NCBI GenBank assembly: GCA_017991395.1
Contig: JAGOQQ010000003.1
Span: 2,400 to 66,399, forward strand
Origin: Minisyncoccota bacterium
GTDB lineage: Bacteria; Patescibacteriota; Minisyncoccia; Phycocordibacterales; UBA9973
Direction of reading: 5' to 3'
DNA length: 64,000 nt
Notes under the pieces: generated by a model
The model's database searches: none
What the model was told of the DNA's origin: nothing
What the model saw: the letters and a program-made list of their open reading frames with translations, nothing else
Shown here: piece after piece, positions 6,174 through 59,678 of the stretch
How positions within the stretch are numbered: the stretch's first letter is position 1
Layout: every line of letters starts with the position of its first letter
Translations under genes and position numbers: made by a program

Positions 6174-6898
6174 TCAATCATAAAGTTATACTTGTAGCAC
6201 TTGTTGGGGGAATTTTCCCTGCACTTTTTTGGTTGTGGTTTTGGCTCAAAGAGGACAAAGAAAGACCGGAGCCACGCGGACTGATATTTCTCACCTTCCT
6301 ACTCGGAATGGCAACAGTGATATTTGTACTACCATTCCAACAACTCGCACGTACTCACCTCGATAACCAAATGTTTCTTACATTAGTCTGGGCTACCATG
6401 GAAGAAGTGATCAAATATGGAGCAGTTGCACTGGTCGCATTCAAAAGTGCCTATGTAGATGAGCCGATTGATTACCCTATTTATATGATTGCCGCAGCAC
6501 TTGGATTCGCAGCGCTCGAGAATACACTTTTCTTGATTCATCCACTTTCAGTAAATGACACAACTGTCGGACTCCTTACTGGAAATCTTCGATTCCTTGG
6601 TGCGACACTGCTTCATGCAGTAGCGAGTGCAATGGTGGGAATATCTATGGGTCTCGCATTTTATGGCACATGGTTTCAAAAAAAGTTTTATCTCTTTGGT
6701 GGGATACTCACAGCGATCGCATTGCATGCACTCTTTAACTTTTTTATAATGAAGAATGATGGACAAAACTTTTTTAGCGTCTTCGGATTCCTCTGGATTG
6801 TCACGATAATCTGCATACTCTTGTTTGAAAAACTGCGACGTATGAGTGAAGCACTTACCCATGTTAATGTCGAACCAATTGAACCACTACCAAACTAA
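6161..6898 (+). CDS. PrsW-family intramembrane protease-like protein
   Basis: Multi-TM protein with EEVIKY (EExxK), FAALEN (FxxxE) and HALFN (HxxxN) motifs. The ORF opens at 6113; start ATG at 6161 is chosen to limit overlap with valS. Confidence 0.6.
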   Translation: MGDLVNHKVILVALVGGIFPALFWLWFWLKEDKERPEPRGLIFLTFLLGMATVIFVLPFQQLARTHLDNQMFLTLVWATMEEVIKYGAVALVAFKSAYVDEPIDYPIYMIAAALGFAALENTLFLIHPLSVNDTTVGLLTGNLRFLGATLLHAVASAMVGISMGLAFYGTWFQKKFYLFGGILTAIALHALFNFFIMKNDGQNFFSVFGFLWIVTIICILLFEKLRRMSEALTHVNVEPIEPLPN

Positions 6899-6909
6899 TC
6901 TTTAGCACT

Positions 6910-7431
6910 ATGCAAAAAAAACGATCATTTTTCGAAAGACTCACTGGAGGAATACGAATGGAAGACGAATCTCATGATTCTGTTTCGCACGATCAATACG
7001 AAGAAGAACAACATCCTCGTACTATCAGTACACCTGGATCAAAATTCTCAAAAGTAACACCACAAGAAGAACCTCACGGAGCGTGGCAAGAAGAAGACGT
7101 GGGTGGACAACTCGCAGTCGATGTATATCAAACACCGGGAGAAATAATTGTACAGACAATGGTGGCTGGTGTACGACCAGAAGATCTCTCAATCAACATC
7201 ACACGAGACATGATTACAATTCGAGGAAAGCGTGAAGAAAATCGTACAATAAGCGAGGAAAACTATTTTACAAAAGAATTGTACTGGGGCTCATTTTCAC
7301 GTACGATTCTCCTTCCCCAAGAAATCGACCCAGAAAGTACTGAGGCGATAGAAAAGCACGGATTGCTCATCATAAAGCTTCCAAAGCTCGATAAAGGGCG
7401 TCAGACAAGTATCAAGGTGAAATCACTCTAA
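6910..7431 (+). CDS. Hsp20/alpha-crystallin family small heat-shock protein
   Basis: Alpha-crystallin domain: AVDVYQTPGEIIVQTMVAGVRPEDLSINI...FSRTILLPQEID...LLIIKLPK. Confidence 0.8.
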   Translation: MQKKRSFFERLTGGIRMEDESHDSVSHDQYEEEQHPRTISTPGSKFSKVTPQEEPHGAWQEEDVGGQLAVDVYQTPGEIIVQTMVAGVRPEDLSINITRDMITIRGKREENRTISEENYFTKELYWGSFSRTILLPQEIDPESTEAIEKHGLLIIKLPKLDKGRQTSIKVKSL

Positions 7432-7478
7432 TCAACAAATGGGCGACTGCATGCGCCGTCGCCCATTTGTTGATTTTT
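7432..7478. terminator. bidirectional rho-independent terminator (caacaaatgggcgac...gtcgcccatttgttg + T-run)
   Basis: Extended perfect inverted repeat followed by tttgttgattttt. Confidence 0.7.
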
Positions 7479-7505
7479 AACCCAATTTTTGCTATATTTT
7501 AAACC

Positions 7506-7802
7506 GTGGACGACGAACTTAAAAAACTCCTAGAAGAAAACTTGGAACTTTCAAAAGAGAACAATCATCTTTTGAAGAGTGTTCGTGGCTCCCAAAAACG
7601 TGCGGCAATGATGCGCACGCTGTATTGGATTTTGATACTTGGAATGACATTTGGTGCATATTACTACATTCAGCCGTATATTGAACAAATGATGTCTCTG
7701 TATACTGGTGCACAAGACAACGTCAAATCACTTCAAGACTATTTTCCTGAATCAAAAAATGTTCAATCAATAATTGAGCAGTTTGGTGGAAACAAAGAGT
7801 AA
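7506..7802 (+). CDS. small membrane protein, hypothetical (GTG start)
   Basis: 98 aa, one TM helix (LYWILILGMTFGAYYYI); no known motif. Confidence 0.4.
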   Translation: MDDELKKLLEENLELSKENNHLLKSVRGSQKRAAMMRTLYWILILGMTFGAYYYIQPYIEQMMSLYTGAQDNVKSLQDYFPESKNVQSIIEQFGGNKE

Positions 7803-7809
7803 GTAGTAT

Positions 7810-7826
7810 GCTCGGGTAGCTCAGTT
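7810..7826 (+). repeat. truncated 5' fragment (17 nt) of tRNA-Phe, copy 1
   Basis: gctcgggtagctcagtt identical to the tRNA-Phe 5' end, preceded by the same tatg context; the sequence then diverges. Confidence 0.7.
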
Positions 7827-7896
7827 CCCTGCCTTTACAGCAGGATAAAGTCCGAGCGCTCCACCCACCACGTGTGATAAGCGAATTAAATAATAT

Positions 7897-7936
7897 GCTC
7901 GGGTAGCTCAGTTGGTAGAGCGCTCCCCTGAAGAGG
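7897..7936 (+). repeat. truncated 5' half (40 nt, through anticodon loop) of tRNA-Phe, copy 2
   Basis: 40/40 identical to positions 1-40 of the intact tRNA-Phe at 8087, with the same aataatatg upstream context. It then diverges and no 3' half follows. Confidence 0.75.
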
Positions 7937-8086
7937 CGAGGAGCGAATACTTGGAGCTTCGCAAGACCTTTTGAGATAAATTTTAGTTTACGAAAAAATA
8001 TATCCAAAAGGTGTACAGCTTCTGTAAGAAGTAGGGCACCTATCCCTCGTATGATAAAATAGGCACATAAAATAAATAATAAATAT

Positions 8087-8159
8087 GCTCGGGTAGCTCA
8101 GTTGGTAGAGCGCTCCCCTGAAGAGGGATAGGTCACCAGTTCGACCCTGGTCCCGAGCA
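8087..8159 (+). tRNA. tRNA-Phe (anticodon GAA), CCA not encoded
   Basis: Hand-folded cloverleaf: acceptor GCTCGGG/CCCGAGC, D-arm GCTC-AGTTGGTA-GAGC, anticodon loop CTGAAGA, T-arm ACCAG-TTCGACC-CTGGT; 73 nt. Confidence 0.85.
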
Positions 8160-8172
8160 CAGCACAGAATAG

Positions 8173-8217
8173 ACTACACAAACGACGCTTCACTATATGA
8201 AGCGTCGTTTGTGTAGT
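8173..8217 (+). terminator. long perfect hairpin (19-bp stem) downstream of tRNA-Phe
   Basis: actacacaaacgacgcttca / tgaagcgtcgtttgtgtagt inverted repeat. Confidence 0.55.
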
Positions 8218-8239
8218 TGTTTACATATTCAAAAATACA

Positions 8240-9088
8240 ATGTATAGTGAAATTAAATATACAAAAAACAGAAACAATATGGGTAACATGCCAAAAAATC
8301 TTATCCTTGTAAGACATGGGCAGTCTGAGGGTAATGCAGTTCAAAAAGAATTTGAAAATTCAGGTGACGACAGATTCTTTTCTGAAGAGTTTCTCAGTCT
8401 TCATGAGTCCCAATATGCATTAACAGAGCTCGGTATCGAACAAGCCAAAAAAGCCGGACGTTGGCTTATTGAAAACGAGCTAGACTCCTTTGATCGATAC
8501 TATGTATCAAACAATGTAAGAGCGTTGCAAACAGCTGCATATCTCGGATTGAAAAATGCTTCTTGGTACAATGATTTCAATTTGCGTGAACGAGATGGTG
8601 GATTATTTCATACAATTACTCCATCCAAACGAGATGAATCGTATGCAGACCAACAGAAATTCTACAACACTCAGCCTTTTCTCTTTAGGCCACCACAAGG
8701 AGAATCCATTGCGGATGTATGCCAACGTGTTCAAAAAGTACTTGAAACACTTGCTCGAGAATGCGGCGGAAAGAATGTTATTATTGTATGTCATGGACAT
8801 GTCATGAGAACATTCAGAATTGTTCTTGAAAGAATGTCACTTGATAAGGCAAATAAGTACCTATCAGGAACTGAAGAATGGGCACGCGTTCCAAATTGTT
8901 CAATTATTCACTACACACGAGAGGACCCAAGCACAGGATTACTTAATGCGTATTTAAATCATGTGAGAATGATTAGGCCGACAGGAGGTGGACTACCAAT
9001 CGACCAGTGGCAGAAAATTGAACGAGTTAGATTTTCAAATGAAGACTTACTTGAAGAAGCAGAAAGGAACAGAGTAATTACTGCGTAA
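8240..9088 (+). CDS. histidine phosphatase superfamily protein (phosphoglycerate-mutase-like)
   Basis: LILVRHGQSEGN catalytic RHG motif near the N-terminus; the true start may be the MGNMPKN Met at ~8279. Confidence 0.7.
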   Translation: MYSEIKYTKNRNNMGNMPKNLILVRHGQSEGNAVQKEFENSGDDRFFSEEFLSLHESQYALTELGIEQAKKAGRWLIENELDSFDRYYVSNNVRALQTAAYLGLKNASWYNDFNLRERDGGLFHTITPSKRDESYADQQKFYNTQPFLFRPPQGESIADVCQRVQKVLETLARECGGKNVIIVCHGHVMRTFRIVLERMSLDKANKYLSGTEEWARVPNCSIIHYTREDPSTGLLNAYLNHVRMIRPTGGGLPIDQWQKIERVRFSNEDLLEEAERNRVITA

Positions 9089-9091
9089 CAC

Positions 9092-9132
9092 AAAACGTTT
9101 AAAATGACACATGTCATTTTAAACGTTTTTTT
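9092..9132. terminator. rho-independent terminator, 18-bp AT-rich perfect stem + T-run
   Basis: aaaacgtttaaaatgaca-ca-tgtcattttaaacgtttt followed by ttt. Confidence 0.7.
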
Positions 9133-9351
9133 AATCACAGACCATTATCTATTTGTCATCGCTCTCGACTGGGACCAAAGCACAAAATCCCGCGTAGGCG
9201 GGATGTTTGTGTCTTGTGGTCACAAATATTTTTCTCGTCGTCACTCGAAAAATTTCGCGACCCCGCCTCAGTTATTCGCATTGGTATGCGAATATACTTC
9301 CGACCGGCACAAGTATCAAAAAATGCCAAGCAGTTGGCGTTTTTCTCTCTT

Positions 9352-9366
9352 GTGCCCTTACTCCGA
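9352..9366 (+). repeat. 15-bp direct repeat of the tRNA-Arg 3' end (gtgcccttactccga)
   Basis: Identical to 9525-9539, the 3' end of the minus-strand tRNA-Arg; 17 bp if the preceding tt is included. Confidence 0.75.
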
Positions 9367-9475
9367 CGCTTCGCTATCTCACTCTTTGGAAACCCACGGT
9401 TTTCCAACGTTTGCTTCGCTCACTGCCTTCCTCCACGGGAAAACTAGAGTTTTCCCGACCCCTTTCCTGTTCGAT

Positions 9476-9488
9476 TCGGAGTAAGGGC
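9476..9488 (+). repeat. inverted copy (tcggagtaagggc) of the tRNA-Arg 3' end; with 9354-9366 it forms 13-bp terminal inverted repeats around a 109-bp ORF-free segment
   Basis: Perfect reverse complement of 9354-9366. Confidence 0.7.
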
Positions 9489-9490
9489 GT

Positions 9491-9519
9491 AAATAAAAAT
9501 ACACTTATACGAGTGTATT
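9491..9519 (-). terminator. terminator hairpin for tRNA-Arg (aatacact-tatacg-agtgtatt with U-run on minus strand)
   Basis: 8-bp stem; A-run 9491-9497 on the plus strand. Confidence 0.5.
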
Positions 9520-9525
9520 ATTTTG

Positions 9526-9597
9526 TGCCCTTACTCCGAATCGAACGGAGATCTATTCCTTAGGACGGAACTGTTCTATCCATTGAACTATAAGGGC
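9526..9597 (-). tRNA. tRNA-Arg (anticodon CCU)
   Basis: Reverse complement folds as GCCCTTA-TA-GTTC-AATGGATA-GAAC-A-GTTCC-GTCCTAA-GGAAT-AGAT-CTCCG-TTCGATT-CGGAG-TAAGGGC-A; 72 nt. Confidence 0.8.
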
Positions 9598-9604
9598 AAA
9601 ACAT

Positions 9605-9626
9605 AAAAAGCGCGTATGCGCTTTTT
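9605..9626. terminator. bidirectional terminator aaaaagcgc-gtat-gcgcttttt
   Basis: Perfect 9-bp stem flanked by A-run and T-run, between the convergent glutaredoxin gene and tRNA-Arg. Confidence 0.65.
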
Positions 9627-9641
9627 ATAACACACAGAACA

Positions 9642-9881
9642 CTATTTTTGAAGCTCTAGTGCTTCGGAAATCTTTGGTTCATTGAATCCCACAATCACTT
9701 CATCATTGATGACAATCACAGGAACGCCCATTTGCCCGCTTTTCTCAATCATTTCTGCACGCTTTGCTAAATCTGATCCAACATTAAATTCTTGGTATGC
9801 TACGTTGTGAGCCTTGAAGAAATCCTTTGCAAGACCGCAAAAATGACACGTTGGAGTACTATAGATTGTTACATTTTTCAT
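9642..9881 (-). CDS. glutaredoxin-like protein (NrdH/YruB-like thioredoxin fold)
   Basis: 79 aa, CHFC active site (TCHFCGLAKDFF) and GVPVIVIND motif. Confidence 0.8.
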   Translation of the reverse strand: MKNVTIYSTPTCHFCGLAKDFFKAHNVAYQEFNVGSDLAKRAEMIEKSGQMGVPVIVINDEVIVGFNEPKISEALELQK

Positions 9882-10062
9882 ACGTAATTGTGAATTATTT
9901 TATAAGTAAATACAGTATATCACACTCGAAATATCTGCACAGATTGACCGAATTGGTAGATATTTCGAAACCAATAATTCTGAAAAGTGTATTTATTGTT
10001 GCTTGACTTTTATGCTATTATGTGATACAATATTTTCAGAAAAACCTTAAAAAATCTATACT

Positions 10063-11190
10063 ATGTTAACAAAAATTATCTTATCGATTCTTGCAATTGC
10101 AGGACTCGCATTACTTTATTATTTGATTCATCTAGGATTTGCCGAAGTAATCAAATGGCTCGCAAAAAGAAAAATTCTTTGCGTGTACCTAAAAGAAAAC
10201 CGTATCATACAAATTGATGACGGTGAAAAATTCAATGAATTTGTTCTTAGCAAGAAAGGGTATTCATTTCAATTTCAAAAAGAAGAAAAGGAATGGAAAC
10301 ACGAGCGTGAGAAATGGAAAATTGTAAAAAATGAAAATTTCAACCTCGATGATCATCTATCTGGATTCAAAAGATGGTGTATGAAAGAACTTGGAATCTA
10401 TTGGTTCGGCGGATGGTTATTTTCAAGAAAGGTGAGGGTACGAGAAGTTGAGTTGTTTAGTTATGACCAACGAAATAAAAAGCTCGAAGAAATCGAACGA
10501 AGCTCGCCGTATTTATTTGCAACAGATACCCTGTATGCATGGGAAGTCCGTAATGCTGAAGATATCACAGGAAATTCCTTTCACGTAGATTTTGGAGTAA
10601 TCGCAAGTGTTACAAATCCATATATAGTATGGATTGAAAATGAAAAATGGGATCAAACTTTTGGTTCTATTGCCTGCTCTGCTCCACTGTCTTTAATTAA
10701 GTCGAAGCCCTTCCATATTCTCAGTAAACAAATTCAAAAAGGTGTTGAAAAAATAAAGGAAGAAGCGTCAAAGGGTGCAAAAAATGATGCAGAAAAAGAT
10801 GGAGAAAATGACGACGAAATTGCGGAAGCATTTAGTAAGGTTGTTATTGAAAAGCTAAGAAAGCAACTTAAAGGATTTGATTTTAAAAGAGTCACATTGT
10901 TTAATGTTGACCCAGAGAATCCAGGCGTTTTAGAAGCAATCCTAAAGTTTTATACTGCACAGTATGAAGCAGAGGCTTTAATTGAAGTGGGACGCGGAGA
11001 GGCCGGTAAAAATGCCCAACTCTTGAAAGTTGAGCGAGATGACTTGAAGAAAAGACTTAAAGCCATGGATGATCATCCAGAATCTGCGCGACTTTCGACA
11101 CTAAAGGAAACCTTCAAAAATGTAACAGTTCTTGGAGGAGATCAAATGACATTGTTAATCGATCCAAAACAAAAAGCAAAAAATGACTAA
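10063..11190 (+). CDS. membrane-anchored hypothetical protein with charged coiled-coil C-terminal region
   Basis: N-terminal TM helix, 375 aa, C-terminal AQYEAEALIEVGRGEAGK segment loosely reminiscent of SPFH/flotillin tails. No firm family. Confidence 0.45.
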   Translation: MLTKIILSILAIAGLALLYYLIHLGFAEVIKWLAKRKILCVYLKENRIIQIDDGEKFNEFVLSKKGYSFQFQKEEKEWKHEREKWKIVKNENFNLDDHLSGFKRWCMKELGIYWFGGWLFSRKVRVREVELFSYDQRNKKLEEIERSSPYLFATDTLYAWEVRNAEDITGNSFHVDFGVIASVTNPYIVWIENEKWDQTFGSIACSAPLSLIKSKPFHILSKQIQKGVEKIKEEASKGAKNDAEKDGENDDEIAEAFSKVVIEKLRKQLKGFDFKRVTLFNVDPENPGVLEAILKFYTAQYEAEALIEVGRGEAGKNAQLLKVERDDLKKRLKAMDDHPESARLSTLKETFKNVTVLGGDQMTLLIDPKQKAKND

Positions 11191-12079
11191 AATGGGTAAT
11201 TGGATTAAAAAAACATTCAGTGGCACTGGAAAGTACTTCAGAAAAAAAATGCCGAACGTGCGTCACAAAATGACGAGAATCGGCAATTGGATTGGAAAAG
11301 TATTTGGTGGTACCGGAAAGTATCTCCGACGAAAGCTGTCTGGTGTACGAAGTAATTTATCGAAAAGAATGAGCGGATTATTTAAAGGGTTCAAAAGCGT
11401 TCCTTACTTCTATGGTCTAAAGTCGGTATTTGCAGTTATTGCATTTGTAGTAGTCTCTAAAATTATGTTTTCAGATACCAGCAGTACTGAGAGTGGAGGC
11501 GTTGACTGGGTTACAATATGGCAAATTATTGGTCTACTAGCATTTATAGCACTCTGCATCTATCTAGTTGTCAGATTTGCCAAAGTGACTGGAAGTAGCA
11601 CTACACCTAGTGCAAAAATTAAAACAAGCGCACCCGTTACGGTTGTCTCAAGTCAATCAACTTCGACAAAATCTACTGTGTGGGGATCGCTGAAAAGCTT
11701 TGTTGGCTTCTTGATAGGAGCGGCATTGGTAATGTACGTCATCATGCTAACTTATGGATACGGAGTCAAAACCATCCATGAAATTACTGGTAACGATGGT
11801 AAAAAATCACCCACATTCAAGGAAAGCACCTGGGAGCAAAAAACATTAAAGTTTACCTCGGAGGAGAATGCAGAATTTGTTCTTGTAGCACCGCCAGGAT
11901 ATCGGATTAAATCCGACGACTTTCCCGCAAACGGGATAATCATCGCAGATGATGGCACACGTTATCGAGTGGGACCAGATTACGGATACAAGATTCCAGA
12001 TATGAAAACAAACATTCACTGGAAATGTATCTCAATGGGAAATCCATTTGAGGTGACAATTTACACCTCAAGAAAATAG
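11183..12079 (+). CDS. membrane hypothetical protein with N-terminal tandem repeat GNWIxKxFxGTGKYxRxK x2
   Basis: 298 aa, overlaps the upstream gene by 8 nt (operon); 3 TM segments. Confidence 0.45.
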   Translation: MTKMGNWIKKTFSGTGKYFRKKMPNVRHKMTRIGNWIGKVFGGTGKYLRRKLSGVRSNLSKRMSGLFKGFKSVPYFYGLKSVFAVIAFVVVSKIMFSDTSSTESGGVDWVTIWQIIGLLAFIALCIYLVVRFAKVTGSSTTPSAKIKTSAPVTVVSSQSTSTKSTVWGSLKSFVGFLIGAALVMYVIMLTYGYGVKTIHEITGNDGKKSPTFKESTWEQKTLKFTSEENAEFVLVAPPGYRIKSDDFPANGIIIADDGTRYRVGPDYGYKIPDMKTNIHWKCISMGNPFEVTIYTSRK

Positions 12080-12131: not shown

Positions 12132-12164
12132 AAAAAATCCCTCACAATTGTGAGGGATTTTTTC
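12132..12164 (-). terminator. terminator aaaaaatccctcaca-attg-tgtgagggatttttt for the convergent minus-strand operon
   Basis: Perfect 14-bp stem flanked by A/T runs, 4 nt from the stop of 12168..12482. Confidence 0.7.
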
Positions 12165-12167
12165 AAA

Positions 12168-12482
12168 CTAGTTTATGTCTCTTATTTCTACAGTGCCTTG
12201 CCTTGGATCAATACCTTGGATGCCAAATGTATTGATAATGATTTGCATCAAACCAAACACGGCAACCATGATAAACATTCCAATTATTCCATAGAGCATG
12301 TGATCCTTGCCCTTTGTTTTTTCAGATTCACTTTCTGACCTAAAGAAAACCAACATTCCCCACAAAAAATACAGCACAGCTACTGTGAAAATAAAAAGTA
12401 TGACTGGATTTATTATGAGTCGATTTACTTTTCTGACGAGCTCATCAACACCTGCATATGCGATTGGAATGAAATAATGCAT
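12168..12482 (-). CDS. small two-TM membrane protein, paralogue 5 of pilin-like family (no cleavable signal evident)
   Basis: 104 aa with TM1, a KTKGKD loop, TM2 and INTFGIQG, the motif architecture shared with the four upstream paralogues. Confidence 0.55.
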   Translation of the reverse strand: MHYFIPIAYAGVDELVRKVNRLIINPVILFIFTVAVLYFLWGMLVFFRSESESEKTKGKDHMLYGIIGMFIMVAVFGLMQIIINTFGIQGIDPRQGTVEIRDIN

Positions 12483-12499
12483 TGAGTGGTTTAATCAAC

Positions 12500-12862
12500 T
12501 TAACAACCTGATGTTCCTGGGATACAAGGAATGTTTTGAATAGATCCTTCATTTCCGTTAAGAAATGTATTTGAAAGCACATCTACAAGTCCCCACATTG
12601 CAACAATAACAAACAGTCCAATAATACCTGAAATCATCATGTTTCTTCCCTTCTCTTTTGTTCCGTCGTCCTTACCCATAACGTATGTAATCACACCGTA
12701 AATAAACACTGCAACTGCAAAAGTAATAAGCAATGGAATTATAATGTTCAAAATACGTTGAATTGTGCCAAGTATGCTCTCTGCATCAACAGTACCTTGT
12801 GCACCAACTACAAATGGGAACAAAAACATCAAAGGTAACAAAAACGAAATATACTTTTTCAT
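12500..12862 (-). CDS. secreted two-TM pilin-like protein (TrbC/VirB2-type architecture), paralogue 4
   Basis: Sec signal ...FVVGAQG, then TM1, a GKDDGTKEKGRN loop, TM2 and SNTF. Confidence 0.55.
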   Translation of the reverse strand: MKKYISFLLPLMFLFPFVVGAQGTVDAESILGTIQRILNIIIPLLITFAVAVFIYGVITYVMGKDDGTKEKGRNMMISGIIGLFVIVAMWGLVDVLSNTFLNGNEGSIQNIPCIPGTSGC

Positions 12863-12960
12863 AATTAATTTAATGAATAATAACTTATAATGAAGAGGAA
12901 ATACCTACTCTCCTTTGCTTATAATTATAGCACCGATTTTACAAAGTCAATACTAAAATA

Positions 12961-13500
12961 CTATTGATCTGTAGGGAAAAGTGGCAATACCGTATCAAAG
13001 CCGAAAGTATTCCCCACAACACGAACTATCCCCCACATTGCCGTCATAAAAAACAGTGCAAGTATTCCCCACAGAATATACTGTCTACCTTTCAAAAGTT
13101 CTTTTGGGTCAGCAGAAATCACATATTTAATAATCCCAATGATAAACAACGTAATCGCAAGAGTAAATACAAGTCTGAATATATTTGTTTGGATAAAGCA
13201 TCTTATATAATCCAAAAGCTCTCTTAAGTTTTCAAAATTTTTATTACAATACGCGAATACTTGAATATCTGTATTTTGTGTGGAACTATACAAATTTGAA
13301 TTTGTATCATATTGAACCTCATTTGGATCAACATTTCCCCAATCAAAGGTATTAAATACATTTCCATCATCAAATGTATTTCTCTGGGCAATAGCAACAC
13401 TCGGCACAAGTGTAGCAACACAAACAAACAACATAGCCATTACTGTCATGCATATTGCAATTCTTTTACTTATACTCATTGTTATACTTTTTTTACTCAT
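12961..13500 (-). CDS. secreted two-TM pilin-like protein, paralogue 3 (longer N-terminal Asn/Thr-rich region)
   Basis: Signal ...VAIAQR, TM1, an ADPKELLKGR loop, TM2 and GNTFGF. Confidence 0.55.
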   Translation of the reverse strand: MSKKSITMSISKRIAICMTVMAMLFVCVATLVPSVAIAQRNTFDDGNVFNTFDWGNVDPNEVQYDTNSNLYSSTQNTDIQVFAYCNKNFENLRELLDYIRCFIQTNIFRLVFTLAITLFIIGIIKYVISADPKELLKGRQYILWGILALFFMTAMWGIVRVVGNTFGFDTVLPLFPTDQ

Positions 13501-13504
13501 AGAT

Positions 13505-13954
13505 TTATGGGGTTACTAGCTCGTTGACTGTCTCGCCCAATGCATTTGCAAGCACCCATGCACCGAGAAGTATCGCGGCGCCAATCATTACACCAAAAAG
13601 ATTATTTTTTGCCTTTTCAATTTCGGAAGGATTTCCCCGTGCAGTGACAAATTTGAAACCTGCAAGAATAATAAATACGGCGATCACAGGCACACCAATA
13701 GTGAGTACAATATCAAGCAATCTTTTTACAAAATCAGTTATTGTATTGACACCAGAACCAGCAAGAGGGTTGTTGAGTTCAAAATCCAAAGTTATATCGC
13801 CAGTTCCTGTATCGAGACCTTGACCTCCACCTGTACCAGTATCTAATTGTGCGTACACAACACCAACATTCTGATTGCAAAGTGTTGCAATCGCCATTAG
13901 CAAAATTATGCAAATTTTTGTATTTTTATAAATCCAAAGTAAATGTTTTTTCAT
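13505..13954 (-). CDS. secreted two-TM pilin-like protein, paralogue 2 (Gly/Thr-rich N-terminal stretch)
   Basis: Signal ...VVYAQL, TM1, an ARGNPSEIEKAK loop, TM2 and ANALG. Confidence 0.55.
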   Translation of the reverse strand: MKKHLLWIYKNTKICIILLMAIATLCNQNVGVVYAQLDTGTGGGQGLDTGTGDITLDFELNNPLAGSGVNTITDFVKRLLDIVLTIGVPVIAVFIILAGFKFVTARGNPSEIEKAKNNLFGVMIGAAILLGAWVLANALGETVNELVTP

Positions 13955-13960
13955 AATTTT

Positions 13961-14341
13961 TTAATAAAATGCATCAAATTTGTCTGCATCGAATCCCAGA
14001 CCTTGCATTATCACCTTAACAATAAGATACGCTCCGAGCGCAACACCATATCCGATAAGCATCTTAATAAACATTGACTTTGCTTTTCCTTTATTGCTTG
14101 GATTGTCGCCTGATCGCATATAAAGCCACCCCGCATACGCAAACACAATTGCTGCAAAGGGTGTGGCGAGTGTGAACAACATGAAGTTGATTACATTGTT
14201 GAAAAGCACCATCAACTTCTCAAAACTACAATCCTCTCCGTCACATGGAATCAAATTTCCCTGCGCGTGTGTAATTGCTGGCACATAAATAGCGGTGAGT
14301 ATTAGAAATGATGTGCACAACGCCAAAATTTTTTTATACAT
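13961..14341 (-). CDS. secreted two-TM pilin-like protein, paralogue 1
   Basis: Signal ...AITHAQG, TM1, an RSGDNPSNKGKAK loop, TM2 and QGLGF. Confidence 0.55.
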   Translation of the reverse strand: MYKKILALCTSFLILTAIYVPAITHAQGNLIPCDGEDCSFEKLMVLFNNVINFMLFTLATPFAAIVFAYAGWLYMRSGDNPSNKGKAKSMFIKMLIGYGVALGAYLIVKVIMQGLGFDADKFDAFY

Positions 14342-14343
14342 AC

Positions 14344-15669
14344 TTATATTCTAATTGGATTAAGTAAAATATCAAATTGAGTATCAAGTTTGTTTGTCAC
14401 CTGATCGGCGCTTTCTGCGCCTGATTTGAGTTTTCTGAGGGCGTCGATAAAGAGTGTAGTAGTATCAGGCCCAGAAGGATCAAACCAAGCTTTTGATATC
14501 AATGATGATTGGTAAAAAACACTTACATATGGAATCGTCTGAGGAGTGGAAAGGAGGTCACGACGTGCTGGTGGCAATGACAAACTTGAAGCGATAATGC
14601 CCGCAAACTGTGGACTTGTGAGCTGTGTTACAACTGAAAATGCGGCTCCAACATTTTTCGAATTTTTTGTGATGGCGATGCTGTTCATTTTACCATACGT
14701 TGTTTTGAGTTTTGCACCTTCTAATTGTGGTACAAGTGAGACATTGAAATTGAGGTTTGGATTTCTGTCTTTGATATAGAAAAGTTCACTTGCATAGCCG
14801 ATATAAAATGCGCTATTGCCCGCTATAAACGTATTGCGTGAGTTTTCCATGCCCGCATTCCATGTATACACTGCGCTCTCAGCAGGATTTGAAAACTTTG
14901 TATAAAATTCTAACGCACGTGGACCTGGGCGAAATTGCCCATCGGGTGCTGTGTCATTGATAGCCGAAAGAAGTTTGTCGCCACTCTTAACAACAATCGG
15001 TGTGCCAAATTGCATCATGAGAAGAGAGATAATTTCCTTTGCATTTGAAATATTGTTAAATTCACCAAGTGCAATGGTGCTCTGAGAAATATTATATGAC
15101 GTATCAGAAATTGTAAGGGTTGGAATCAAGGCGATGATTTCTTGCCATGTTTTTGGTGGAAGCGCAACACCAGACGAATCAAGCATTGCTTGGTTGTAAT
15201 ACAGTACGAGTGGATCTACGGTAATTGGAAGTCCAAAGATACCCGAACTTCCGAGATACAACTCTGCTTCACTGATGAATGTATCTTGAAATTGCTTGAG
15301 AGGATAATTTGTGTATGGAATTTGAAATACTTTGTCGCTGTATCGAATCACCAAATCATTTGGAAGAAAAATAAGGTCTGGTCCTTTGCCTGAAGCGAGT
15401 GCTTCGATCAGCTCAGTATCAAAATCATTTTGATTTACGTATTTATAGCTTAAACTAAATGCCTTGTTGTTTGCATTTATTTGATCAAGTAATGGCGACA
15501 TTGTCTTTTGTGGGACTGAACCCCAAAGAACAACAGGAACACCCGCGGTTGAAGCAGAATTTTTGCCGACAGATATTGCTCCAGAAAAAACCAGCACTGC
15601 TAAAACAACAAATGCTCCAAATACGACGAGAAGTATCAATTGAAATTTTGAACTTTTTTCTTGTGCCAT
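14344..15669 (-). CDS. membrane-anchored extracellular solute-binding-protein-like protein (ABC SBP family 1-like)
   Basis: N-terminal TM anchor; 441 aa; motifs typical of sugar-type SBPs (DLIFLPND, FGLPITVDPLVLYYNQAML). Two nt from the pilin-like array. Confidence 0.5.
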   Translation of the reverse strand: MAQEKSSKFQLILLVVFGAFVVLAVLVFSGAISVGKNSASTAGVPVVLWGSVPQKTMSPLLDQINANNKAFSLSYKYVNQNDFDTELIEALASGKGPDLIFLPNDLVIRYSDKVFQIPYTNYPLKQFQDTFISEAELYLGSSGIFGLPITVDPLVLYYNQAMLDSSGVALPPKTWQEIIALIPTLTISDTSYNISQSTIALGEFNNISNAKEIISLLMMQFGTPIVVKSGDKLLSAINDTAPDGQFRPGPRALEFYTKFSNPAESAVYTWNAGMENSRNTFIAGNSAFYIGYASELFYIKDRNPNLNFNVSLVPQLEGAKLKTTYGKMNSIAITKNSKNVGAAFSVVTQLTSPQFAGIIASSLSLPPARRDLLSTPQTIPYVSVFYQSSLISKAWFDPSGPDTTTLFIDALRKLKSGAESADQVTNKLDTQFDILLNPIRI

Positions 15670-15672
15670 AAA

Positions 15673-16227
15673 TTATATTCTTTTCATTATTATTCCGTAA
15701 TGGTGAGTGCCTGGGTCAAAACTTTTGTCATATGAAAATCCTGTTTCTTCAAAAAGCCTTCGTGCTGATGATTCGTTGACTACATGATCACCTTTTGGTC
15801 CTGCGCCTGCACCGTCACCCGTCCAATCCACAATCATCACCCGTCCACCTGGCTTCATGATTCGCGCAATCTCTCGAGCAAAGCCTACTTTGTCTTCAAT
15901 TTGAAATAAGACATTTGCGACAATGGATGCGTCAACCAACTTATCAGCAAGTTTTGTGCCACCGCGGAGTTCTATGTTTGCCCACACACATTCAACATTT
16001 CCGAGACCTTCATCTCGGATTCTGTTTTTCAATGTTTCAACAAGTTCTTTTTGAACATCAAGTGCATATACCTTGCCAGAGCTTCCAACTCGTCGTGATG
16101 CTTCGCGTGTGTACCATCCGCTTCCTGCGCCAAGATCCACCACAATCTCTCCTTCTTTTAGGTATAATTCTTTTATGTTATCCGCTGGTTCTTTGAATTG
16201 CATACTATGTATATATAATTGTATCAC
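15673..16227 (-). CDS. class I SAM-dependent methyltransferase
   Basis: VVDLGAGSG motif I, acidic motif II (ALDV); the start may be the internal Met at 16203. Confidence 0.7.
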   Translation of the reverse strand: MIQLYIHSMQFKEPADNIKELYLKEGEIVVDLGAGSGWYTREASRRVGSSGKVYALDVQKELVETLKNRIRDEGLGNVECVWANIELRGGTKLADKLVDASIVANVLFQIEDKVGFAREIARIMKPGGRVMIVDWTGDGAGAGPKGDHVVNESSARRLFEETGFSYDKSFDPGTHHYGIIMKRI

Positions 16228-16308
16228 TCAAAATACGTACTGTGTGGGGAAAAGCTTTGGGCGGGTGAGGTCGGAAGCAATGAAAGAATGTTGTATGGGA
16301 TTCTTATT

Positions 16309-16342
16309 CAAAAGAGCGGCGCCCATGGGCGCCGCTCTTTTG
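16309..16342. terminator. bidirectional terminator, 15-bp perfect palindrome aaaagagcggcgccc/gggcgccgctctttt
   Basis: Immediately 3' of the gyrA stop. Confidence 0.7.
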
Positions 16343-16378
16343 AATAAACACATTTCATTTTCCCTCTTAAACTATTTT

Positions 16379-18880: not shown

Positions 18881-19282
18881 TTACTCATTATTTGGAGTTG
18901 ACGAGGGTGTTTCTGTGGGTTGTGGTGTGAGAATTACTTGCCCACCCACTGTTTCGACACTTTCGTCGCTTGAATCCATTTCAGATGTCGACGGGACCAA
19001 CTCGGCATCTTGGGTTGGAGTTTGCTCTGTCCCTGCTGGCTCATTTTTGGGTACAGAATACTTTGCATTTGACCACATATTTGAGATACCACTTGAAAGA
19101 GATTTGAGAGGTGCAAAACGATCATCGGTTGAAGCGGTATTTTGATTTTTGTGTGAATCAAAATAGAGTAGCGTAAGCCACACACCACAGACCACAAGTG
19201 TCACCACGAATGCACTTCCGTAGACGATACGTTGTCGCTCCTTTAGTGGTCGCGAACGAATTTTGTACAACAGTCCTGACAT
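18881..19282 (-). CDS. membrane protein with Pro/Thr/Ser-rich low-complexity C-terminus, hypothetical
   Basis: One TM helix (VVTLVVCGVWLTLLYF); 133 aa. Confidence 0.4.
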   Translation of the reverse strand: MSGLLYKIRSRPLKERQRIVYGSAFVVTLVVCGVWLTLLYFDSHKNQNTASTDDRFAPLKSLSSGISNMWSNAKYSVPKNEPAGTEQTPTQDAELVPSTSEMDSSDESVETVGGQVILTPQPTETPSSTPNNE

Positions 19283-24255: not shown

Positions 24256-24885
24256 ATGATAGAAGAAAAAAATGATTCTATACCTACAGTGGATGCTGTA
24301 CATAGAACAAGTGAATACTCACAAACTCCTGATACTCAAAAAAAGAAAAATTCGATTGTTGAACTTATCAAATTTGCATTTATTGCAGCATTGATTGTCA
24401 TTCCAATTCGCACATTTATTGCACAGCCATTTATTGTCTCTGGAAATTCGATGATTCCAACATTTCACGATCAAGAATATCTTATTGTTGATGAACTTTC
24501 ATTTCACATGCGTGACCCTCATAGAGGAGAAGTGATTGTATTTAAATATCCAAAAGATACCTCAAAATATTTCATCAAACGTGTTATTGGACTTCCTGGA
24601 GAAACACTCAAGTTCAAAGCAGGAGAAATAATTATCGTCAACGAAAAATATGCCGAAGGAATTGCGCTCGATCAATCATATATTGAGAACAAATCAAAAG
24701 ACACATTTGAAGTAACTCTCAAAGAAGATGAATACTACGTAATGGGAGACAACCGTATTGCAAGCTCTGACTCTCGCGCATGGGGACCACTTCCACGAAA
24801 ATACATGGTTGGCCGCGCACTTATACGAGTACTTCCATTTTCAAAAATTGACTATCTACCAGGAAACTACATCACACAAGAATAA
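24256..24885 (+). CDS. lepB: signal peptidase I
   Basis: SGNSMIPT (Ser box), VFKYP, GDNRIASSDSRAWGP (boxes D/E). Confidence 0.85.
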   Translation: MIEEKNDSIPTVDAVHRTSEYSQTPDTQKKKNSIVELIKFAFIAALIVIPIRTFIAQPFIVSGNSMIPTFHDQEYLIVDELSFHMRDPHRGEVIVFKYPKDTSKYFIKRVIGLPGETLKFKAGEIIIVNEKYAEGIALDQSYIENKSKDTFEVTLKEDEYYVMGDNRIASSDSRAWGPLPRKYMVGRALIRVLPFSKIDYLPGNYITQE

Positions 24886-37725: not shown

Positions 37726-38751
37726 TTACAACGATTTTTCTAACTCAATGAGTTTTTTCACACCATTGTAAAGTTGTTCAAAAATTTCTCTTTCTGTAAT
37801 ACCGAGACGTCGCTTGTTTGAAATGTCATAGATTCCATCAGATGACTCTGAATGTTCTCCGTGTACTCCTCGAATCGAAAGACCAAGCGATTTACATACC
37901 TCATTGAAATCAGGACTCGCTGAAAGTTTTGGAATTCTGATGTGCACTGAGGCGCGCATTGCTGTGCCAAGATTTGTTGGACATGTTGTGTAATATCCAC
38001 GAACATCGTCGAACGCAAAATTGATTTTCTTGTTTATTGTATCAAGCGCTGACGCAAGTCTACTGAAAACTTCTGCAATATCTGCTCCTTGTTGCATGCT
38101 GATAATTCGCATTGAATCTTCCTCTGAAACCCATACCAAAAACTTTTTATCATTTGAAAAAAAGATTCCGCGGTTTTTTGGCCAATCGCGATTGACACCA
38201 ACACTTTCCAAAAATCTATCTGCTTGTTTGAACAAGAAATGATCTTCAACCATTTTCTGTCGAACTTCCTCTGACATTCCATCTAGTGGAAAGTATTCTC
38301 CTTTCAGCGACTCAGGGAGCGCATTGAGCGCGTCTACAATTTCTGATTCCATTCTTGCCCTATCTTCCGCAGAAATCGCTGATGGAAATGCATACTTTGC
38401 AAAGTTTCTTCCTACCCGAATACGAGTAGAAACTACATACTGACCTTCAGGATCCAAATTTTCAGTTGACAGACCGCTCAGTGAAAAATCACTTTTGTGG
38501 CCGGTCATTTCATAATTGTGATATTCACGGATAATTGGATCAAATAACGGCGCAAGAAGCGTATACGACTCAGGTCCTCCTGCATATACACCTATGCTTG
38601 AATCTGGATTATCCTTCCCTGACTGTATAGCTCTCTGAGCTGTCCACCCGTTGGATTCGGTTATTCCATTAAGTTTTGCCAATAATTCTTCAGTACAGTG
38701 CTTCAACATAAGCATGTCTGGATTTGTTTTGATTTCTTTCATAAGGTACAT
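37726..38751 (-). CDS. arginine kinase-type phosphagen (ATP:guanido) kinase with metazoan-like N-terminal domain
   Basis: [15 protein letters not shown] active-site Cys motif and [34 protein letters not shown]. The N-terminal block [27 protein letters not shown] follows the guanidino-specificity region of arthropod arginine kinases. Confidence 0.85.
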   Translation of the reverse strand: [341 protein letters not shown]

Positions 38752-52795: not shown

Positions 52796-54583
52796 CTACT
52801 TTTCATTCAGTGCATCAAGTCCCTCCTTCATCGACTGCATTCTTGATGCAATAATACGTTCAGCATCTTCGATATCCTTTGTATGTTGAGAAATAAGCCT
52901 TTTTTCACCGTCATTTGTTGAGCTGAGCAAACTTGCCCTCTTCAACGCCTGAGCGTCTTCTGATAAAATATCAAAACTACGCGCCAAAAGATGCTCTGTG
53001 TCTCTTAACTCATGAGATATCTTGTACTTCATCAGTCTCATTCTGTACCATATAAATGCAAGAAAGAAGGCAAGAATAATAATGACTATTATAATCGGAC
53101 CAATGAGTCCTCCACCCAGCATTCCAGCAAATAGCCCGGTTGATTTAACAACTACTATAACTGGCTCGGAATCCTCACTTGTTGCCCCTTCTTTATTCAC
53201 GGCTTTGACGCTAATCACATACGTATCTGCTCCAAATCTCTCTGCCAGCACAACGGTAAATGTGCCGTCTGCCCTAGCTTCAGTGGTCGTCTCAAATACA
53301 ACACCATCCTTGTTTTTTGAATTATAAAAAATCTTACTTCCCTTTTGGTTATTGTTTTGAGCTGAAAGTGACAACACCACATCAAAGTTTGGCAATGTCG
53401 TTCCTTTTATTATGATTGGTTCTCCTTCGTCTACAACACCTGTGTACTCGATAATCTTTGGCACAGGCAATCCTGTAATGGTAAATGTTTTCTTTTCTTT
53501 TATACTATTTCCTGCGCGATCTTTTGCGGTCACGGTGATAGTATGTTCTCCTGGTGGCAACGCTGGAGTCTCATAGATATTTGATGAATTCTCAAACCAT
53601 GTTGTTCCATATGAAGTTCCAATCTCAATTTCGTATTCCTTTATTCCTGAACTCAAATCTTCTGACTCAAACATGAAGCGTGCACGAGGGCTTGTTTTTG
53701 CACTCTTGTCCATTTCTGTAACGACGAGCTTTGAAGGTGGTGTTGTGTCTATTTGAAACCGGAAATGCGCTATTGACCCCCATCCTTTTTCGTTTCTGGT
53801 TCTCACATGTAAATACCAAGAACCATCCTCAAGTACATCGGTTGTGTACATAGACATCATACCTTTTGATGATGTGCCTGGATTTGTAGTTGGTTTTTTA
53901 TCTACCACATATGTCACTCCGGTAGTATCTGGGGCAAGATTCCATGCGAAAGATGCCTTATTTATTGGATACCATTCAAAACCACTTTTGTGTGTTGATG
54001 ATATGACTTGCGGCGCTTGTGGCAACCCTTTCCCTGCTTCCTCAGTAGTAAACTCAGATCCTACAGGTCCAAGCACATATGTGCCATCTCGAACAGACGC
54101 GAGTATGTTTGTACCCTTTCCGTCATTAGCAAGAACTGATGCTGAAAGAAAATTCACCGGAGCGGTACCTTGTGCTTTTACTTTAAATGTAATTGTAAAT
54201 ATTGTTCCTCGTGACCCCTTGTATCCTGGATTAAGCACAATACCTTCAAATCTCATCACGCCAGGTTCAGACGAGTATTCACCCGGGTCAATAGTCCAAA
54301 AATTGACTATTGAAGATGCCTTGGAAACCGAAGTGACAGAGAGCTTATCAGAAGGATAATTTATTCTTCCTGAAAGTGCATTGAGGGCTTGCTCGGTACT
54401 TGTAGTATAAATAGACACTGAAAAACTATCACCAACATTGTAATTTCCTGAATTTGGTGACACAAGCAAACTTGCCGCAAAAGAGTAGTGCGGAGCGACA
54501 AAAAAACAAAACACCGCAAACACGCACGCTAAAATCGCCTGAAAAAAAAGCAGTATATTACTCTTTTTTCCTTGTATATACAT
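52796..54583 (-). CDS. cell-surface protein: N-terminal cohesin-like domain, Ig-like repeats, C-terminal TM anchor and cytoplasmic coiled-coil tail
   Basis: LLVSPNSGNYNVGDSFSVSIYTT...INYPSDKLSVTSV...GTIFTITFKVKAQGTAPVNF, a cohesin-type beta-sandwich signature. TM segment GPIIIVIIILAFFLAFIWY near the C-terminus. The ORF opens at 54625; the likely start is the MYIQGKK Met at 54583. Confidence 0.55.
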   Translation of the reverse strand: MYIQGKKSNILLFFQAILACVFAVFCFFVAPHYSFAASLLVSPNSGNYNVGDSFSVSIYTTSTEQALNALSGRINYPSDKLSVTSVSKASSIVNFWTIDPGEYSSEPGVMRFEGIVLNPGYKGSRGTIFTITFKVKAQGTAPVNFLSASVLANDGKGTNILASVRDGTYVLGPVGSEFTTEEAGKGLPQAPQVISSTHKSGFEWYPINKASFAWNLAPDTTGVTYVVDKKPTTNPGTSSKGMMSMYTTDVLEDGSWYLHVRTRNEKGWGSIAHFRFQIDTTPPSKLVVTEMDKSAKTSPRARFMFESEDLSSGIKEYEIEIGTSYGTTWFENSSNIYETPALPPGEHTITVTAKDRAGNSIKEKKTFTITGLPVPKIIEYTGVVDEGEPIIIKGTTLPNFDVVLSLSAQNNNQKGSKIFYNSKNKDGVVFETTTEARADGTFTVVLAERFGADTYVISVKAVNKEGATSEDSEPVIVVVKSTGLFAGMLGGGLIGPIIIVIIILAFFLAFIWYRMRLMKYKISHELRDTEHLLARSFDILSEDAQALKRASLLSSTNDGEKRLISQHTKDIEDAERIIASRMQSMKEGLDALNEK

Positions 54584-55445
54584 AGGCAAAAATACTAACT
54601 CCAATAAGCAATGCACACAGCCCAATCAATACACCCAAGCCCAGCATGCTCACAAGATTATTTCCAAACTTTATTTTTGCCTCTCTCTCGTTTCCGTTTT
54701 TATCGACAGCAATTACCCTGATTGTTGATTTTAATGATTGATCTTGAAGTAAGTATGGGCTTTTTGCACTAATCCAACTACTTGAACCTTCTTTTATTCT
54801 ATATGAGGCAATACCTGTTTCTTTGTCTTTGGCGTCAAATACTACAAAATATTTTCCGTCGAAAAATCTATTATCTCTTTTTACTAAAAGAGTAAACGGT
54901 TCTGGAGGATTTGTGTCGAATGAAAAATCATCCACAGAAAATCCTTCATTTGAGATCATAAATTCATATGGCAATGTCTTGGTTACACCGCGAGTTCCCA
55001 AACCATCATTTAGAAATGTGTCAGCCGATGTAAAAGTGAGTGACCCCTTTCCTTCACTTTTTGCGACAAATACGAGCCTTGTGACACGTCCAGAAGAAAC
55101 AGAATTGGTGACTGGGTCAATAAGACCACTAAAACCCCCTGCAGCAATACCTGCAAAGCGAATTGAATTTCCGTTAAGTGCGGGTGTCTCAACCCATCCG
55201 TTTATTATTGATCCGGTATCAAAATAATCTACAAATTCAAGAAATTCACTTGGAAATATTATTTCTGCCTCGACAGCATTTGTGTTTTTTCCCTCTGTGT
55301 CGAGAAAAATATCAAAATAAATTTTATCCCCAGTTTTGAAATGTTGAGTTGGTGATGAAAAATATATCTCAGATGCCAAAGTTGCTCGAGGAGTTACGGC
55401 GAGTAAAAGAAAGGCAAATGTGATTATATAGAAAAATTTTTTCAT
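54558..55445 (-). CDS. cell-surface protein with N-terminal cohesin-like domain and C-terminal TM anchor
   Basis: SEIYFSSPTQHFKTGDKIYFDIFLDTEG...AVEAEIIFPSEFLEFVDYF...GRVTRLVFVAKSEGKGSLTF, then TM LGLGVLIGLCALLIGVSIFAYVY. The ORF runs to 55460, overlapping the upstream stop; start taken at the MKKFF Met at 55445. Confidence 0.5.
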   Translation of the reverse strand: MKKFFYIITFAFLLLAVTPRATLASEIYFSSPTQHFKTGDKIYFDIFLDTEGKNTNAVEAEIIFPSEFLEFVDYFDTGSIINGWVETPALNGNSIRFAGIAAGGFSGLIDPVTNSVSSGRVTRLVFVAKSEGKGSLTFTSADTFLNDGLGTRGVTKTLPYEFMISNEGFSVDDFSFDTNPPEPFTLLVKRDNRFFDGKYFVVFDAKDKETGIASYRIKEGSSSWISAKSPYLLQDQSLKSTIRVIAVDKNGNEREAKIKFGNNLVSMLGLGVLIGLCALLIGVSIFAYVYTRKKE

Positions 55446-55447
55446 AA

Positions 55448-56338: not shown

Positions 56339-56351
56339 GATTTATATACTA

Positions 56352-57365: not shown

Positions 57366-57383
57366 AGTGATTAGAAAAAATTA

Positions 57384-58451: not shown

Positions 58452-58579
58452 AATTAATAGTACTAAGTAAATAATAATCAATAAAAAACATTCTCCCAAT
58501 TTGATATATATATATTATATAGTGTTATTTAAAAACACCTAGTATAGTTTTCCACATACACAAAAGATTTTAAATCTAA

Positions 58580-59644: not shown

Positions 59645-59678
59645 GGTTAAATTTAGTATATCATTTTTATATGCACAT

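Follow-up and report, generated by a model that had tools for sequence, protein, structure and literature searches.

Five VirB2-like pilin paralogues form a conserved operon with a solute-binding protein and a methyltransferase in Paceibacteria

Introduction

Tandem arrays of VirB2-like pilin genes from the type IV secretion systems (T4SSs) of Patescibacteria (candidate phyla radiation, CPR) are the closest described relatives of the locus considered here, a seven-gene operon with five pilin-like paralogues in DNA of a Paceibacteria bacterium (contig JAGOQQ010000003.1 of assembly GCA_017991395.1, positions 2,400 to 66,399 of the forward strand; this whole 64-kb stretch is called the window). 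A search of 3,035 Patescibacteria assemblies with the Pfam models PF18895 and PF04956 found VirB4 in 2,417 of them (80%) and VirB2-like pilins together with VirB4 in 1,948, the pilins lying near virB4 in only 1,135 and away from it in ~40% of the genomes having both (Quinonero-Coronel et al. 2025, PMC12102498). The same survey recorded 441 arrays of 2-11 pilin genes, with a mean identity of ~25%, across 383 assemblies and most abundantly in Microgenomatia and Saccharimonadia, and in Southlakia epibionticum ML1 a six-pilin array within the T4SS cluster is essential for epibiotic growth (Wang et al. 2023, PMC10633639).

A large part of all bacterial diversity falls within the Patescibacteria, which seem to spend their lives attached to other microbes. 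Few systems have been proved essential for this way of life, and the T4SS with its pilin array is one of them. To our knowledge, neither a cargo for the patescibacterial T4SS nor a role for its many pilin paralogues has been established. Also, PF18895 has been described as dominant in freshwater-specific structure clusters, and published synteny places the Paceibacteria T4SS machine near dnaA.

The locus reported here is not a new kind of system. Its value lies in a conserved context, a methyltransferase, a sugar-type solute-binding protein and five pilins in the order A-B-C-D-E, which makes the function of such arrays more testable. Throughout one large clade of Paceibacteria, each of the five paralogues is a fixed subunit, conserved in its own right and locked to these two partners; two predicted outward-facing display positions vary between strains, and the locus argues against reading such arrays as repertoires for antigenic variation.

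Results

Gene organisation and pilin family membership

Seven open reading frames (ORFs) lie on the minus strand across 12168-16227, with the coordinates given in an earlier, preliminary description of this DNA. The first gene of the module (ORF 15673-16227; probable gene 15673..16203) encodes a small class I S-adenosylmethionine (SAM)-dependent methyltransferase (MTase), and is followed by the gene for a 441-aa membrane-anchored, carbohydrate-type solute-binding protein (SBP; SBP_bac_1/8; 14344..15669). Behind these two stand the five pilin-like paralogues. PilA (13961..14341, 126 aa) has a signal peptide, a CxxxxC motif and a helical hairpin. In pilB (13505..13954, 149 aa), the signal peptide is followed by a hypervariable N-terminal tail rich in Gly and Thr, and this by a hairpin core that hardly varies. 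PilC (12961..13500, 179 aa) combines a signal peptide and a hairpin with an ectodomain of ~60 aa containing two Cys, the hairpin of pilD (12500..12862, 120 aa) stands between a signal peptide and a C-terminal Cys-x-Cys tail, and pilE (12168..12482, 104 aa) consists of a 10-residue leader, MHYFIPIAYA, and a hairpin. From MTase to pilE, the intergenic spacers are 3, 2, 6, 4, 98 and 17 nt, in agreement with the spacing of 2-98 nt first noted, and with the placement of SBP and MTase directly upstream of the array at distances of 2-3 nt.

The five adjacent genes, described from the start as paralogues of 104-179 aa, are related beyond chance as judged from their Pfam assignment, from blastp, from a family hidden Markov model (HMM) and from a common hairpin block. 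Pairwise blastp gives 9e-14 for C-D, 1e-14 for D-E, 3e-13 for C-E, 4e-7 for A-B and 6e-4 for B-E, comparisons that place A and B in one subgroup and C, D and E in another. The family HMM, run on all ORFs of the window from 60 aa upwards, matches pilA to pilE and no others. Mutual identity is only 16-28%, and a block made of the first transmembrane (TM) helix, a basic loop and the second TM helix can be aligned across all five, with one loop lysine nearly invariant and the variability lying N-terminal to the block. The preliminary description had placed the divergence in the exposed N-terminal parts and the conservation in the helices, which the paralogue alignment and the orthologue comparisons bear out, and the loop sequences that it quoted are exact.

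Regarding the family, PF18895 (T4SS_pilin) is the top Pfam match for all five proteins (B 43.5, D 38.7, E 28.9, A 25.8 and C 18.9 bits), with B, D and E passing the gathering score of 26.6 bits, A just under it and C under it. PF18895 is also called on the C orthologue of a close relative, locus L008, and on long A orthologues (31-42 bits). The TrbC/VirB2 model PF04956 matches A (22.6 bits) and B (23.9 bits) below its gathering score of 27.9 bits and does not match C, D or E, whereas the NCBIfam model NF045849 is the first match for A, B, D and E and the joint-first for C, all under the 40-bit cutoff (B 34.4 bits). A search with the family profile retrieved 70,623 cluster representatives. These matches support the assignment, already proposed from the architecture, of the five predicted proteins to the TrbC/VirB2-like pilin superfamily, and specifically to PF18895.

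The modest Pfam scores (19-44 bits) and the many spurious weak matches to other membrane families in the same scans could also be read as a sign that these are unrelated proteins with two TM segments, such as holins, toxins or immunity proteins, matching pilin models by hydrophobic composition. This is extremely unlikely, since PF18895 ranks first for all five and exceeds the curated cutoff for three, the independent NF045849 model ranks first or joint-first throughout, the family profile finds its tens of thousands of representatives, no phage or lysis genes are found nearby, and the small proteins have no PADLOC match. Holins, named at the outset as the alternative family, are set aside on these grounds.

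Hydropathy analysis shows a leader, two hydrophobic helices and a short charged, K/R-rich loop in the pilins, pilE being the exception with its 10-residue leader only. The preliminary description had assigned a Sec signal to each gene; this stands for A to D and fails for pilE, where the analysis detects neither a canonical Sec signal nor a hydrophobic segment in the leader, the motif of which is nevertheless kept in the relatives L006 and L008. Likewise, the terminal N-T-F-G-like motif attributed to the whole array, NTF(G), occurs in C, D and E but not in A, which has QGLGFD, or in B, which has GETVNE. The AlphaFold2 model of B consists of a signal helix, a disordered segment rich in Gly and Thr (33-57) and a hairpin (72-104/109-147) with a predicted local distance difference test score (pLDDT) >90. 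Moreover, Cys pairs occur in the N- or C-terminal tails of A, C and D. Taken with the N-terminal passenger domains found at position A in relatives and with the K/R-rich loops, these pairs suggest an N-out/C-out hairpin with the loop inside.

A fixed unit across related loci

Using the SBP as query, a scan of GTDB returned seven species and a metagenome scan 80 further loci with SBP identities of 39-45%. The MTase-SBP-pilin unit is found in ~90 related loci, down to 39% SBP identity, from metagenome-assembled genomes (MAGs) of Candidatus Paceibacterota or Parcubacteria. The close relatives L006-L010 share gyrA, MTase, SBP, five pilins and a convergent gene pair. All loci that reach 3 kb or more past the SBP gene on its downstream side (39 in number) have five (the mode) or six matches to the pilin HMM directly behind it, and MTase immediately precedes SBP in all 19 long loci tabulated. 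Of the 45 arrays with at least four genes, 31 show the order A-B-C-D-E under paralogue-specific HMMs, and the others mostly differ by one extra D-like gene.

The module remains intact where one to four genes intervene between gyrA and MTase, and also in a wholly different neighbourhood away from gyrA (L105), where MTase is still directly upstream of SBP. Some short contigs seem to deviate, but only because the contig end truncates a long position-A gene. The sole true exception is L074 (3720-5745), where a SBP homologue is followed by tsf, encoding elongation factor Ts, and not by pilins.

Clade-wide, the identity to the window proteins is 38-45% for MTase, SBP and the pilins alike, with gyrA at 70%. 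In the closest species, L006, the module genes reach only 66-88% identity, as against 97-99% for gyrA, S1 and glutaredoxin. PilC is the most divergent position (66% to L006 and 37% to L008, versus 98% and 93% for gyrA), and the hairpin core of B is nearly invariant, whereas SBP is only 74-80% identical. The fixed order and the paralogue-specific identity indicate that the five types diverged before the clade radiated and that each has been kept since. On this comparison, the five distinct subunit types with SBP and MTase constitute one fixed seven-gene unit, a context that is apparently unreported: within the accessible literature, our search found no report of a link between CPR pilins and a solute-binding protein, nor of the linkage of MTase and SBP to the hairpin genes.

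MTase probably starts at the ATG at 16203, the start that gene calling gives on every related contig and that yields 176 aa. It matches Methyltransf_31/11/25 at 54-59 bits, and its nearest solved structure is 3dh0, an uncharacterised protein (1.7e-22). A reading of the locus as a defence system was rejected, as PADLOC matched only a generic MTase domain (mad2) and neither the pilins nor SBP. SBP passes the gathering score of PF13416 (72.2 bits) and PF01547 (67.2 bits), and its profile retrieves sugar-binding SBPs from the Protein Data Bank (PDB), for example 4r9f at 1e-15, and 1eu8. Residues F9, F17, A24, V25, F28 and G30 of its anchor are invariant in 9 species, alongside many aromatic and acidic residues. 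In the window and in the related loci, no cognate permease or ATPase gene adjoins SBP, the neighbours being MTase upstream and the pilins downstream. The unbroken linkage of MTase and SBP to the hairpin genes across such deep divergence implies a shared function.

Operon boundaries

A repeat search located two palindromes at the ends of the module. One, of 44 nt (22+22, 100% complementary; 16304..16347), lies between the gyrA stop codon and the MTase gene, and is probably the gyrA terminator and the upstream boundary of the operon. The other, a perfect palindrome of 32 nt with A and T runs on either side (12132..12163), separates pilE from the convergent gene 11183-12079 and is a bidirectional terminator marking the downstream boundary. 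Logan contigs, which are short-read assemblies of the same organism, break or end exactly at both. Upstream of the MTase gene, the string TGATACAAT (16218..16226, minus strand), ~15 nt from the ATG at 16203, could on a reading of the sequence tentatively be taken as an extended -10 element; it is absent from the two-hexamer promoter matches of a consensus scan. As the promoter and terminator counts of that scan were near the shuffled expectation, only the two palindromes were used. Neither internal terminators above chance nor invertible elements were found within the operon by the consensus and repeat scans. The locus is one tight chromosomal seven-gene operon.

The convergent pair downstream of the array (10063-11190 and 11183-12079, both on the plus strand, with an 8-nt overlap) encodes a 375-aa protein with one N-terminal TM segment and a 298-aa protein with multiple TM segments. 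Most related loci have a similar-sized gene pair at this position, often with unrelated sequences; the window pair is 97% and 70% identical to that of L006 and only 22% and 16% to that of L008, and in L008 and L027 the pair is Band_7/SPFH-like. The 298-aa protein gave a match to the Mycoplasma ICE family NF045848 (MMCAP2_0566, the conjugal transfer gene adjoining the pilin-like one) at E 0.0067 and 15.7 bits against a cutoff of 90; this match was judged probably compositional and rejected.

Display positions and variation between strains

The five positions differ in what relatives attach to them. Position A exceeds 200 aa in 14 of 38 orthologues, often through N-terminal modules of 200-500 aa, and the long proteins begin with a signal peptide, continue with fn3-like/Pur_ac_phosph_N, TSP_1 or DUF5018 modules and end in a PF18895 domain. 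Long position-C proteins in relatives are fusions of two pilin domains, and B and E are compact in all arrays. Furthermore, the family has single-chain "poly-pilins" with 2, 6 or up to 17 tandem hairpins behind one signal peptide, the poly-pilin and fusion proteins including P0078 (555 aa), P0083 (501 aa), P0082 (1775 aa) and P0087 (240 aa) from the family search and those at L066:7786-8526, L095:9142-9939, L053:8997-9776 and L035:9474-10220. P0087 joins a B-like and an E-like domain, with the E leader motif, LLVPIAYA, surviving as the linker between them. Such fusions, which are absent from the published survey of patescibacterial T4SSs, indicate by joining 2 to 17 hairpins in one polypeptide that the subunits are neighbours in the final assembly.

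Among close strains, contigs from other samples are collinear with the window and 98-100% identical, with two exceptions, L002 and L003. Both retain ~98% nucleotide identity through MTase, SBP and pilA, but the signal peptide and Gly-rich mature N-terminus of pilB (window 13787-13956) are completely different, and the pilC allele is replaced by one of a type seen in a different species. The replaced regions correspond to window 13787-13956 and 12961-13342 and are found at L002:3048-3229 and L003:1780-2735. The two haplotypes coexist in public metagenomes, where many assemblies fragment at the locus into contigs of 0.7-4.8 kb. Consistent with this pattern, the alignment of pilB orthologues shows a hypervariable leader and first 15-25 mature residues ahead of the conserved core, and among collinear strains the changes are concentrated in the B loop and the C leader, with a nonsynonymous polymorphism (pN) of 0 for A, D and E.

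The array was originally interpreted as possibly encoding an antigenically variable filament or a gene reservoir. In such a system, the surface would change through alternating expression of the paralogues or recombination between them, a scheme proposed for the VirB2 proteins of Bartonella and Anaplasma; the idea has been raised for patescibacterial arrays as well (PMC12102498), and the sharp difference of the B tails and the C ectodomain between strains whose flanking genes are 98% identical agrees with it. However, copy number and order are conserved in a clade in which gyrA falls to ~70% identity, A, D and E do not change among close strains, and the tight operon offers no internal terminators beyond chance and no invertible elements. 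Moreover, between paralogues that are only 16-28% identical, short chance matches are all that occurs, with no DNA repeats of at least 14 nt that could support gene conversion. The lack of repeats between paralogues, the fixed number and order in the 39 loci and the individual conservation of each paralogue refute a reservoir or an array of variable copy number, and antigenic variation by this route is very improbable. What stands, in part, of the original idea is surface variability: the changes in the N-terminus of pilB and in pilC are allelic replacements between strains and not variation within a genome.

Discussion

Where the assembly machinery might be

The preliminary description stated that the window contains neither VirB4 nor VirD4, and Pfam scans of 39 ORFs, covering all those of at least 600 aa except a DnaE-like ORF of 1068 aa, agree, finding no T4SS family of any kind; one ORF of 1396 aa has no Pfam match at all. 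The same holds around the module in 19 long related loci, where no VirB4, VirD4, VirB6 or other T4SS gene, and no gene of VirB4 size, is found within 7-10 kb, in agreement with the precomputed Pfam calls on syntenic loci. A different arrangement is observed in L107, where a distant, single PF18895 gene lies among unannotated genes for 416, 352 and 413 aa (L107:2641-6798) and the region adjoins yidC, rnpA, dnaA and dnaN (6823-11131); this matches the published location of the T4SS near oriC, unlike the stand-alone module.

The account that we hold with moderate confidence is that the five proteins would form a VirB2-like hetero-oligomeric surface filament or conduit assembled by T4SS machinery. 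Four of the subunits would use the Sec route for export, with signal peptidase I removing their leaders behind an Ala-x-Ala site, and E would probably insert without a cleaved signal. The window includes a gene for signal peptidase I (24256-24885, plus strand; Peptidase_S26, 150 bits), and its product is likely to be the processing enzyme for the Ala-x-Ala leaders of pilins A-D. All subunits would reside in the membrane as N-out/C-out hairpins, with the short basic loop cytoplasmic, and would be drawn from this pool into the surface filament or envelope-spanning conduit by a VirB4/VirB6 apparatus of patescibacterial type (monoderm, MPF-FATA-like), the genes of which would lie in another part of the genome. 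B, D and E would be compact core subunits, and A and C display positions with their N-termini outward, where relatives carry the adhesin-like or duplicated modules. Hosts or phages presumably exert the pressure under which strains would exchange the outward N-termini of B and C. SBP, with its anchor, and MTase would be obligate partners; speculatively, SBP may sit at the base of the structure as the sensor or receptor of a ligand, and MTase may act as a cytoplasmic modifier, possibly of the conserved loop lysine.

Several observations weigh against this account. Besides the lack of T4SS genes in the window and around the related modules, no experimentally observed filament of PF18895 proteins was found in the literature surveyed, and a constant SBP partner has no precedent that we could find in the literature on T4SS pilus biogenesis. 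Structural comparisons did not recover a pilin either: the AlphaFold2 model of B has no Foldseek match in the PDB at E <=0.001 (best E 3.0), and a profile of the five paralogues against all PDB sequences gives only chance membrane matches (E >=0.26), both searches being uninformative because a bare helical hairpin is too simple a fold to discriminate. Finally, polyproteins of up to 17 hairpins are hard to square with one-by-one extraction into a dynamic pilus and are equally compatible with a static membrane ring.

This last point leads to another interpretation, in which the five or six hairpins form a hetero-oligomeric ring or bundle in the cytoplasmic membrane, a self-contained complex independent of any T4SS that would work with the anchored SBP in uptake, sensing or tethering, so that the homology to pilins would reflect ancestry and not present function. 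Fused hairpin chains are known for the ring-forming c subunits of ATP synthase; the family has fused chains of 2-17 hairpins that recall such fused ring subunits, and subunit c is among the best, non-significant Foldseek hits of B, together with needle proteins of type III secretion systems. The fixed number and order of genes would fit a fixed stoichiometry, the module is never beside T4SS genes in the loci seen, a SBP with a conserved TM anchor stands directly before the hairpin genes in pilin-bearing loci, and the B core is almost invariant next to a much more variable SBP. Nonetheless, the module encodes no ABC (ATP-binding cassette) ATPase or permease to energise it, the large adhesin-like domains at A and the strain-swapped exposed tails suit a displayed structure better than a transporter, and the same family occurs, and is essential, in the T4SS clusters of other Patescibacteria. 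We regard such a complex as unlikely. A bolder form of the idea, in which the MTase-SBP-five-hairpin unit would be a distinct and previously unrecognised envelope apparatus of Paceibacteria, a fixed hetero-oligomeric conduit or ring of VirB2-derived hairpins, some of them joined in polyproteins, that would work with the anchored SBP in capturing or sensing host-derived glycans and would possibly be independent of VirB4, seems decidedly improbable; if true, it would represent a new use of the conjugative-pilin fold.

Other loci in the window

Between gyrA and a gene of the metallo-beta-lactamase fold, a small membrane protein (18881-19282, minus strand) is 57-58% identical to its L006 and L008 orthologues, with neighbours at 90-98%, and is another fast-evolving envelope protein. 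Further away, a cluster of large predicted surface proteins (52796-63869, minus strand) includes the 1396-aa ORF without a Pfam match, ORFs of 371 and 337 aa, a 296-aa protein with Big_6 and a dockerin-like repeat, and a 609-aa protein with Big_13 and a cohesin-like domain, and may be a locus for cell-surface adhesion. Also, a full-length ATP:guanido phosphotransferase of the arginine/creatine kinase family (37726-38751, minus strand; 247 and 69 bits) is encoded, which is unusual for a bacterium with a reduced genome.

Comparison with known systems

Type IV pili and the pseudopili of type II secretion are built from several distinct major and minor pilin-like subunits encoded as a fixed set, one position of which is tied to adhesin domains. 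The likeness of the window array to these sets is an analogy only, as their fold and assembly machinery are unrelated and the window pilins lack a prepilin peptidase motif.

A closer comparison is provided by the TrbC/VirB2/TraA family (PF04956), which includes the pilins of the Agrobacterium T-pilus and the F-pilus and shares with the window proteins the long leader, the two hydrophobic helices, the short basic loop and the N-out/C-out topology. However, the window proteins score below the threshold of this family, belong to a monoderm host, have no VirB machinery adjacent and show no sign of enzymes for cyclisation or acetylation, and they comprise five different subunits in place of one major pilin. 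The best NCBIfam match is to the pilin-like protein of the Mycoplasma integrative and conjugative element (Mbov_0395/ICE_MMCAP2_0565, NF045849), which derives from a wall-less or monoderm system of the mating-pair-formation (MPF) FATA type; this is consistent with the origin proposed for the patescibacterial T4SS. In this case, the Mycoplasma genes are single-copy on mobile elements, whereas the window pilins form a five-gene array and score below the 40-bit cutoff. The clusters of VirB2 paralogues in Bartonella and Anaplasma resemble the locus in having several tandem virB2-like genes that are discussed for surface variation, but the window paralogues are ancient, fixed in position and individually conserved, with replacement at the level of strains at two positions.

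The closest systems are the VirB2-like arrays of Patescibacteria themselves (PMC12102498, PMC10633639). The S. epibionticum array lies inside a T4SS cluster, whereas that of the window has no T4SS gene within 64 kb, and the published arrays are commonest in Microgenomatia and Saccharimonadia, whereas this one belongs to Paceibacteria. We did not find mention, for the published arrays, of linkage to MTase and SBP, of a fixed A-B-C-D-E order or of adhesin-like or duplicated modules at A and C. In all other respects compared, the agreement is close: the PF18895/PF04956 criteria, the phylum, the tandem layout and the combination of signal peptide and hairpin are the same, and the identity within arrays is similarly low, ~25% in the published cases and 16-28% here. 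Tandem arrays of VirB2-like pilins in Patescibacteria are already a published kind, and with five adjacent PF18895-type genes of such low mutual identity in a Patescibacteria genome, the window array is an ordinary member of it.

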